A stretch of DNA of 64,000 nt, from NCBI RefSeq assembly GCF_030384885.1, contig NZ_CP128613.1. One strand, 5' to 3'. This document shows positions 24,001-27,000 of this stretch, one piece after another. Within the stretch, counting starts at the first letter, position 1, and each line of letters starts with the position of its first letter. The position numbers were made by a program. This stretch comes from Escherichia coli (GTDB taxonomy: Bacteria > Pseudomonadota > Gammaproteobacteria > Enterobacterales > Enterobacteriaceae).

Positions 24001-27000
24001 CTGCTGCGCGTTGGCGATTTCGCGGTCAACCATTTCATACAACAGGCGGCGGGAGTTTTGTGGTGACACCATTAAATAATCAAATGTCACCGGACGGTAT
24101 GGGTTTTCAATAAAGTTGAACACACGCCGTACTTCGTTGGTAATGCGCGCATCAGCGGTCAGCAACGAATAGTCAGTATAAAGCCGCGCGGTTTTTTCGT
24201 TAAAGTTCCCGGTCCCGATGTGCGCGTAACGCACCACTTCACCGTTTTCTTTACGTGAAATCAGGAACAGCTTGGCGTGAATTTTGAGCCCCGGCGCAGA
24301 GAAGATAACGTGCACGCCTGCTTCGGTCAGGCGCTTCGCCCAGTGAATATTGGCTTCTTCGTCAAAACGCGCCTGTAGCTCAACCACCACGGTCACTTTT
24401 TTACCGTTGTGCGCGGCGTGGATCATCGAGTCGATGATGCGTGAATCTTTCGCCACGCGGTAAATGTTAATTTTAATCGCCAGTACGCTCGGGTCGAACG
24501 AAGCCTGACGCAGCAGTTCCAGTACATGCTCAAAAGTGTGATAAGGATAATAGAGCAGCACATCACGTTCGCGAATGGCATCAAAACCGTTGCGGAACTG
24601 GGCTTTATCGAACCAAATATGGCGTAAACGCGGCAATGGTTTGTTCACCAGATTGGCTTTGCCGACGTTGGGGAAATTAATAAAGTCTTTAAAATTGTGA
24701 TAACGACCGCCGGGGACAATGGAGTCGTAGCGGGAAATAGTCAGTTTTTCGCGTAACACTTCAACCAGCGCATTAGGCATATCGCGCTGATAAACAAAAC
24801 GTACCGGTTCTGCGGTTAAGCGCTGCTTGAGACTGGAAGACATCAACTCCATCAGGCTGGCTTCCATCTCATGCACTAAATCGTATTCGGCATCGCGGGT
24901 CATCTTCATTGAATAGGCATTCAGCGCGTCATAATCAAAGAAGCCTTTGAAAATATCATCAAGGCAGTAACGCAGAATGTTATCCAGAAGAATCATCGGC
25001 TTGCGTCGACGCGGCGCTTCTGGCGGTAAATTCACAAATCGCGGCACTTTATCTGATGGGATCTCCAGCAGCGCGTAACGGATGGTATCGCCACGGATAA
25101 TTTCCACCGCCAGATAGGTGTAATCATCTTTCAGGAACTGCACTAAGTCAGTGTCAGGATTGATTAAAATCGGCGTAATGTGCTGACGCAGATACTGCTT
25201 AAAATAATGACGCAGCCAGTTTTGTTGATTGACGGAGAGTTGGCGTTCATTAATCAGGAAGATCTGGTTGCGCGCCATCTCCAGCAACAGCTCGTTGTAG
25301 AGGCCGTCGAATTCCTGATCGGCTTTCAGCACCCGGGACTGAATTTTGCCCAGTAAATGGCGGGAATGAGAGTTGGAACCTTGTTCTTCGCTAATAATGA
25401 TGCGTCGCTTCAGTTCAGCGAAGCGGACTTTATAGAACTCATCAAGGTTATTGGAATAGATCCCCAGGAAACGCATCCTTTCAATCAGCGGGTTAGATTT
25501 GTCCGCCGCTTCCTGAAGCACGCGTTCATTGAACGATAACCAACTGAGCTCTTTTTCGATGTATAGCTTTTCCTGACCCATTACCACTTTTACTCCGTTT
25601 TATTCACGGGACACTGCCTGGATATTATGGCGAGCAATATTGGCAGATGTCCAACTATGCCAGAAAAGGGGGAAAAAAACTGCTGGAGCTTGCGATTTAC
25701 AGGTGAATTGAAAAACGCCAGCGGCAGAGCTGGCGCTTTAACTACGGGGGCATTACTCGTCGGCAGCGTAGCCCTGCGGCGGCAGACGTTGACCATCCAG
25801 CCACGCGGCGTTTTCGTGCATTTTCAGACGACCATCGGCAAACCAGCTAATTACCAGTGGATAAATAGCGTGTTCCTGGGTTTGCACGCGGGCGGTGATG
25901 TCATCCTCCGTATCACCAGCAAATACCGGGACTTTCGCCTGTAAAATAACCGGGCCACCGTCCAGTTCATCGGTGACGAAATGCACCGATGTACCGTGCT
26001 CTTCATCGCCATTTTCCAGCGCCTGACGATGGGTGTGTAATCCGGGATATTTCGGCAGCAGAGAAGGGTGAATGTTCAGCAAACGCCCGGCATAGTGGGA
26101 GACAAACGCCGGGCTGAGAATGCGCATAAAACCCGCCAGCACGACCACATCGGGTGCGTACATGTCGATTTCATGAATCAACTCCCGGTCATAGGCTTCA
26201 CGACTGTCAAACGCGCTGGCGATGAGCGTATGCGTTGCAATACCCGCCTGGCGGGCGCGTTCAAGGCCGAACGCGTCGGCCTTATTGCTGAAAACTGCCC
26301 GTACGGTGCCTTTAATTTTATTGGTTTTGCAGGCGTCAATAATTGCCTGCAAATTACTTCCGTTGCCGGAAATAAGCACCACAATATTCATTATTCGATA
26401 ACCACGCGTTGTTCGGAATCAGAAGCTTTGATGATACCGATTTTCCACGCGTTTTCACCGTTGGCATTGAGCAGGGCGAGAGCTTTGTCCACTTCCGGAG
26501 CAGGCAGGGCGATAATCATCCCGACGCCGCAGTTGAAGGTGCGATACATTTCATGGCGCTCAACGTTACCTGCCGTTTGCAGCCAGTTGAACACTTCCGG
26601 CCACTGCCAGGAAGATTCATCAATCACTGCCTGGGTATTATCTGGCAATACGCGAGGAATGTTTTCCCAGAAGCCGCCGCCGGTCAGGTGCGCAATGGCG
26701 TGCACATCAACGTTTTCAATCAACTCCAGCACAGACTTCACGTAAATGCGGGTTGGTGCCAGCAGATGATCGGCTAATGGCTTACCATCAAGTTCGGTGG
26801 TTTGCGGATCACAACCGCTGACTTCAAGAATTTTGCGCACCAGCGAATAGCCGTTCGAGTGCGGACCGCTGGAGCCGAGTGCAATCAGCACATCGCCATC
26901 GCTGACTTTAGAGCCGTCGATGATTTCTGATTTTTCTACCACGCCAACGCAGAAACCAGCGACATCGTAATCTTCACCGTGATACATCCCCGGCATTTCT

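Follow-up and report, generated by a model that had tools for sequence, protein, structure and literature searches.

Six neighboring gene pairs in the stretch of Escherichia coli DNA analyzed here (64,000 nt, referred to as the window) share bases between the stop codon that ends one gene and the start codon that opens the next. The question raised by this locus is whether such overlaps indicate that translation of the second gene is coupled to that of the first, as an earlier note on the same DNA had proposed. Our main reading, which we hold at a probability of about 0.85, is that these are ordinary short stop/start overlaps inside known (purMN, hyfABCDEFGHIJR-focB) or presumed (gcvR-bcp) transcription units, and that they permit termination-reinitiation to a degree that is specific to each pair.

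As seen in Table 1, inspection of the junction sequences bore out the 1-nt overlap of purM and purN and its recurrence, in one form or another, at the gcvR/bcp, hyfA/hyfB, hyfH/hyfI, hyfI/hyfJ, and hyfF/hyfG junctions. Only the order of some pairs has to be amended, which had been given along the plus strand; all genes of the six junctions lie on the minus strand of the chromosome, and the coding order is purM before purN, gcvR before bcp, and hyfA, hyfB, and so on to hyfJ. All six pairs are adjacent and co-directional. The -1 register is used three times and the -4 and -8 registers once each, and the -11 spacing of hyfF/hyfG represents a rarer class. The six spacings are identical in the RefSeq annotations of NZ_CP027579.1 and K-12 MG1655, and when 55 positions per junction are compared with K-12, between 0 and 3 of them are different. 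One such base, 37132 (-) in the hyfI/hyfJ overlap, alters both proteins at once: HyfI ends in Gly instead of the Asp of K-12, and HyfJ has Ala instead of Thr at residue 2. Additionally, the minus strand holds three further tight junctions with small gaps, ppk/ppx (+4, 23510..23515), yffB/dapE (+3, 57021..57025), and hyfE/hyfF (+4, 41723..41728). No Shine-Dalgarno sequence at all precedes ppx (duplex energy +0.1 to -0.9 kcal/mol), and thus ppx is as good a candidate for coupling as purN.

Table 1. Position of the six junctions and of the associated genes and sites in the window
Feature	Position	Strand	Description
purM	26391..27428	-	345 aa, GTG start, upstream gene of purMN operon
purN	25753..26391	-	212 aa; no GGAG/AGGA/GAGG core upstream of start
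purM stop TAA (26393..26391) and purN ATG (26391..26389)	26389..26393	-	TAATG, common base 26391, spacing -1
PurR-box-like palindrome TCGCAAACGTTTGCTT	27492..27507	-	64 nt upstream of purM start; only such site for purM-purN
gcvR stop TAA and bcp ATG	48160..48164	-	TAATG, common base 48162, spacing -1
GGAG Shine-Dalgarno core of bcp	48170..48173	-	within gcvR coding region, 7 nt before ATG; -6.5 kcal/mol
hyfA stop TAA and hyfB ATG	46820..46824	-	TAATG, common base 46822, spacing -1
AGGAG Shine-Dalgarno core of hyfB	46831..46835	-	within hyfA; -6.6 kcal/mol
hyfF stop TAA (40145..40143) and hyfG GTG start (40153)	40143..40153	-	11-nt overlap
GGAG Shine-Dalgarno core of hyfG	40161..40164	-	within hyfF, at the right distance; -6.6 kcal/mol
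hyfH stop and hyfI start	37883..37886	-	ATGA, 4 nt, spacing -4
TAAGGAG Shine-Dalgarno of hyfI	37892..37898	-	within hyfH; -8.3 kcal/mol
hyfI stop and hyfJ start	37128..37135	-	ATGGCTGA, 8 nt, spacing -8

The gene models behind these spacings were transferred from a very close relative. A 2.1-kb stretch around purM/purN is 100% identical to E. coli 2013C-4282 (NZ_CP027579.1), compared with 95-99% for nearly all other complete E. coli genomes. From position 12491 to the end of the window, 4 mismatches and one 1-nt gap separate the two sequences. The RefSeq annotation of NZ_CP027579.1 is therefore directly transferable, and every coding sequence transferred from it translates cleanly in the window. 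The hda gene is intact (29849..30550, +, 702 nt, with the CTG start found in K-12); the copy in NZ_CP027579.1 has one base fewer and is annotated as frameshifted, which is probably a sequencing error in that genome. Elsewhere, the window is without about 8.5 kb that the closest complete genomes carry at 10025..12493, with junctions near 12165-12167, 12289-12291, and 12491-12492. All six closest complete genomes among the matches listed show 4 matching pieces over about 21.6 kb. The absent DNA belongs to the sinH-sinI-adhesin island and takes with it sinI, the 3' end of sinH, and the greater part of an adhesin gene of 8 kb; an 822-aa chimeric open reading frame remains. The absence reflects either a true deletion in several steps or a repeat that was collapsed in the source assembly. 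Two small RNAs matched Rfam families above the gathering score: sroE (4753..4844, +), which begins at the last base of ispG and ends before hisS, and, between ypfH and ypfN, the nucleoid-associated, REP-derived naRNA4 (55582..55658, -). No tRNA genes were found in the window.

Overlaps of this kind are common. Among the 41 co-directional pairs of the window, 6 overlap (15%), and the published share for E. coli is about 15%. Spacings of -8 to +6 occur in 8 pairs, compared to 9.7 expected from the published genome-wide count of 707 in 2987, and the window is thus not enriched in overlaps relative to E. coli overall. The motif itself also arises readily, as an NTG codon stands in the -1 register at 5 of 32 control stop codons that have no close downstream gene. 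Of 23 close pairs, 4 have their true start at -1 or -4, a placement that, unlike the motif alone, is non-random (P about 0.012 when set against uniform spacing). Across prokaryotes, the published enriched spacings are -4, -1, and -8. Every one of the six pairs is moreover listed, with the same spacing, for K-12 in Supplementary Table S2 of PMC10666635, so that the six overlaps are an ordinary and previously catalogued feature.

According to reviews and experiments, translational coupling is most effective with overlapping geometry, and one of the six pairs has been put to an experimental test. With the K-12 sequence of hyfH/hyfI in reporter constructs, strong coupling by termination-reinitiation was reported (Huber et al. 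2019, PMC6728339; 2023, PMC10666635): a premature stop codon in hyfH abolished translation of the hyfI reporter, and wider spacing lowered the efficiency. The last 26 nt before and through the hyfI start are identical in the window and in K-12. Coupling of hyfH and hyfI has therefore been shown by experiment in K-12. The work of Huber et al. and the review by Brown and Wade 2025 (PMC12548453) deal with the same organism, the same spacing classes, and the same layout of intragenic Shine-Dalgarno sequences as those described here. Among the six pairs, hyfH/hyfI, being one of those that Huber et al. tested, is the only one with experimental support. Five of the six spacings fall inside the range of efficient reinitiation (about -8 to +10), and the -11 of hyfF/hyfG lies just outside this range, which Huber et al. 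deemed predictive. From the geometry of their junctions, coupling of hyfA/hyfB, which is identical to K-12 over 55 nt, and of hyfI/hyfJ and hyfF/hyfG is possible. The literature names hyfAB--GHIJR as an operon, and a full-text search found no paper on translational coupling for the hyf operon.

Classical coupled pairs of E. coli, trpE-trpD, trpB-trpA, and galT-galK, have stop and start codons that overlap or abut within an operon, and the yield of the downstream product depends on translation of the upstream gene. This dependence has been tested genetically, whereas among the pairs considered here only hyfH/hyfI has received such testing. A second comparison is offered by the paralogous hyc operon (hydrogenase 3) of K-12, in which overlaps are found at the equivalent junctions: hycB/C corresponds to hyfA/B, hycF/G to hyfH/I, and hycG/H to hyfI/J. 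The registers differ, however, being -4 in hycB/C and -1 in hyfA/B, -1 in hycF/G and -4 in hyfH/I, and -4 in hycG/H and -8 in hyfI/J. Both hycE/F and hyfG/H have a +9 gap, and hycH/I of K-12 overlaps at -8. The retention of overlaps in other registers points to selection on tight spacing and not on a particular sequence.

The hyfG gene of the window (38438..40153, -) deserves a separate remark. It is full length and encodes 571 aa; HyfG of K-12 MG1655 is shortened to 555 aa by a 48-nt in-frame deletion (window 38951..38998), which is flanked by the 10-nt direct repeat GCCCGTGATT. The 16 residues lost in K-12 (ARDYSPVGPLIRGSGF) include the GPxxRxSG motif, which is conserved in HycE and in the 49-kDa subunits of complex I. 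Of 5426 complete E. coli genomes, 4294 carry this part of hyfG; the deletion junction is found in at least 2115, BL21(DE3) included, and the full-length allele in about 2180. One paper reports that H2 was not obtained from a promoter-engineered K-12 hyf operon. A term search of two Hyd-4 papers, that one included, returned no mention of the hyfG deletion. The deletion may bear on the failure to obtain Hyd-4 activity from engineered K-12 strains.

At purM/purN, coupling is a reasonable proposal. The best duplex energy upstream of purN is -2.2 or -5.9 kcal/mol, according to the length of anti-Shine-Dalgarno sequence used, and lies within the background of coding sequence. This differs from the systems of Huber et al., in which a Shine-Dalgarno motif mattered in 4 of 5 pairs tested. 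Within E. coli, 5184 of 5425 genomes carry the 60-nt junction at 99% identity or more. A search with PurN, taking one genome per species, gave 80 Enterobacterales loci spread over about 25 enterobacterial genera, and in every one of them the stop codon of purM overlapped the purN start. The register is ATGA (-4) in 52 and TAATG (-1) in 24, and ATGATG or GTGATG, which can be read in either register, in 4. That the overlap persists although the register varies speaks for selection on tight spacing. In a published table, 802 prokaryotic PurM/PurN pairs have a median spacing of -4 (quartiles -6.1 and +5).

Published expression data for K-12 point in the same direction. According to the ribosome profiling supplement of Burkhardt 2017, the ribosome density is 98.3 for purM and 39.7 for purN (0.40 times), and the translation efficiencies are 1.19 and 0.62; the mRNA levels, 82.8 and 64.3, are similar. 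A lower ribosome density on purN at similar mRNA fits reinitiation at partial efficiency. The literature treats purMN as one operon, and a scan found no terminator-like site between the two genes. Over both strands of the window, 3 PurR-box-like matches were counted against 1.04 expected by chance, including the site of purM and a second palindrome, ACGCAAACGTGTGCGT (50853..50868), upstream of purC. A weak promoter-like match lies in the 3' end of purM (26458..26431), so some purN mRNA could begin there. The consensus promoter and terminator scans, however, returned only weak matches at about the number expected from shuffled sequence, and the promoter matches are not counted as evidence of internal promoters. 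The same end of purM holds two copies of the 9-mer AACGCGTGG (26402..26410 and 26445..26453, -), 43 nt apart and just upstream of purN; the promoter-like match overlaps the first copy, and the palindromic ACGCGT cores of the two copies pair together in the predicted fold. A full-text literature search found no paper on translational coupling of purM and purN. Translational coupling of purM and purN is probable. It might even be that purN has no independent ribosome-binding site, that its synthesis is set wholly by reinitiation from purM, and that a PurM to PurN production ratio of about 2:1 has been preserved by selection across Enterobacterales through switches between -1 and -4; this stronger proposal is tentative, and we consider it somewhat less probable than its opposite.

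The pair gcvR/bcp stands at the other end. In the data of Burkhardt 2017, bcp has a translation efficiency of 2.23 and a ribosome density of 637; gcvR was excluded from that dataset by data-quality criteria, of which signal depth was one. The start codon of gcvR is TTG. A published promoter table gives gcvR and bcp as separate units, and the median spacing of 137 GcvR/Bcp pairs across species is +15. Translation of bcp far above what dependence on gcvR would lead one to expect counts against the coupling explanation at this junction. The pair gcvR/bcp is the weakest case of the six: any coupling is probably minor, and most translation of bcp probably starts independently of gcvR.

The best surviving alternative is that the overlaps are by-products of genome compaction, in which ATGA and TAATG arise easily, that they have no role in expression, and that each gene is initiated independently. 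Strong Shine-Dalgarno cores are indeed present for bcp, hyfB, hyfG, hyfI, and hyfJ (-6.5 to -9.8 kcal/mol; GGGGG inside hyfI for hyfJ), all inside the upstream gene, and a good Shine-Dalgarno sequence of its own at 5 of the 6 downstream genes makes independent initiation feasible. The chance occurrence of NTG at control stops and the high translation of bcp relative to what gcvR seems to receive agree with this explanation. So does the published test of bioB/bioF, which also overlap by ATGA and showed no coupling, and genome-wide, the relative translation efficiency is as variable in overlapping as in non-overlapping pairs. A review likewise ascribes the abundance of the -4 spacing to its likely evolutionary ease. 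These observations fail, however, to account for the demonstrated dependence of hyfI on hyfH translation, or for purN, which is without a canonical Shine-Dalgarno core and retains the overlap in every locus through turnover between -1 and -4. Moreover, genome-wide distances do not follow a smooth distribution but have sharp peaks at -4, -1, and -8. As a general account, independent initiation with no role for the overlap is therefore unlikely. What the published ribosome-profiling and reporter data establish is that overlap permits but does not prove coupling, and predicts its strength poorly. The proposal that the overlaps indicate coupling thus stands for hyfH/hyfI, by experiment, and is plausible for purM/purN; it is weakest for gcvR/bcp and does not hold as a general rule.

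Under termination-reinitiation, a ribosome that ends the upstream gene would halt no more than a few bases from the start codon that follows and would be able to restart there, usually assisted by a Shine-Dalgarno sequence that lies within the last part of that upstream gene. The passing ribosome would also unfold local RNA structure at the start. The share of downstream translation that arises by reinitiation would be nearly all for hyfI, as experiment indicates, probably most for purN, and probably little for bcp.

In a related explanation, coupling results from unfolding alone: the upstream ribosome melts an occluding structure and a new 30S subunit initiates, with no reinitiation by the same ribosome. 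In the predicted minimum-energy fold, the ATG of hyfI lies inside a local hairpin stem and the stretch just upstream of purN's start is paired (ACGCGU with ACGCGU); the experimenters on hyfHI likewise predicted that the initiation region is stably structured, and a review keeps both models in play. When the six junction regions (-99 to +30) were folded, however, none was more stable than shuffled controls (z -0.6 to +1.5), which leaves no computational sign of a structure that enforces dependence. Furthermore, a 129-nt fragment is enough for hyfHI coupling, and its steep fall with spacing was read by the experimenters as termination-reinitiation; at purN, there is no canonical Shine-Dalgarno sequence to recruit a free 30S subunit. 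Unfolding as the sole mechanism is accordingly still less likely than independent initiation, and termination-reinitiation remains the preferred mechanism.

The assignment of start codons leaves little room for a third explanation. For each gene, the scan took in all in-frame ATG, GTG, and TTG codons, from the in-frame stop that lies upstream to a point 25 codons into the gene, together with their Shine-Dalgarno duplex energy, and no plausible alternative start removes any of the overlaps. In purN, bcp, hyfB, and hyfJ, no possible start precedes the annotated ATG in the open reading frame; the candidates that come next fall 3 to 23 codons into the protein, are mostly without a Shine-Dalgarno sequence, and would cost conserved N-terminal residues. 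The E. coli PurN chains of solved structures (PDB) begin with MNIVVLISG, as annotated, and in 79 of 80 related loci there is no upstream start other than the ATG that overlaps the stop codon of purM. It is therefore extremely improbable that the overlaps are annotation artefacts of wrongly picked start codons, even though, three codons downstream of the hyfI ATG, a GTG is served by a usable Shine-Dalgarno sequence, and hyfG has a non-ATG start and an ATG 45 nt upstream (40198), since this ATG, the sole other candidate upstream of the conserved N-terminus, has no Shine-Dalgarno sequence (+0.6 kcal/mol) and would enlarge the overlap to 56 nt, hyfF is overlapped by either hyfG start, and HyfG aligns with HycE from residue 4, in support of the annotated N-terminus.

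The significance of these overlaps as a discovery is very small, and few stretches of E. coli are better annotated than the one that holds these junctions. Their practical use lies in checking the annotation of start codons, in backing operon calls, and in the caution they provide against equating overlap with coupling.
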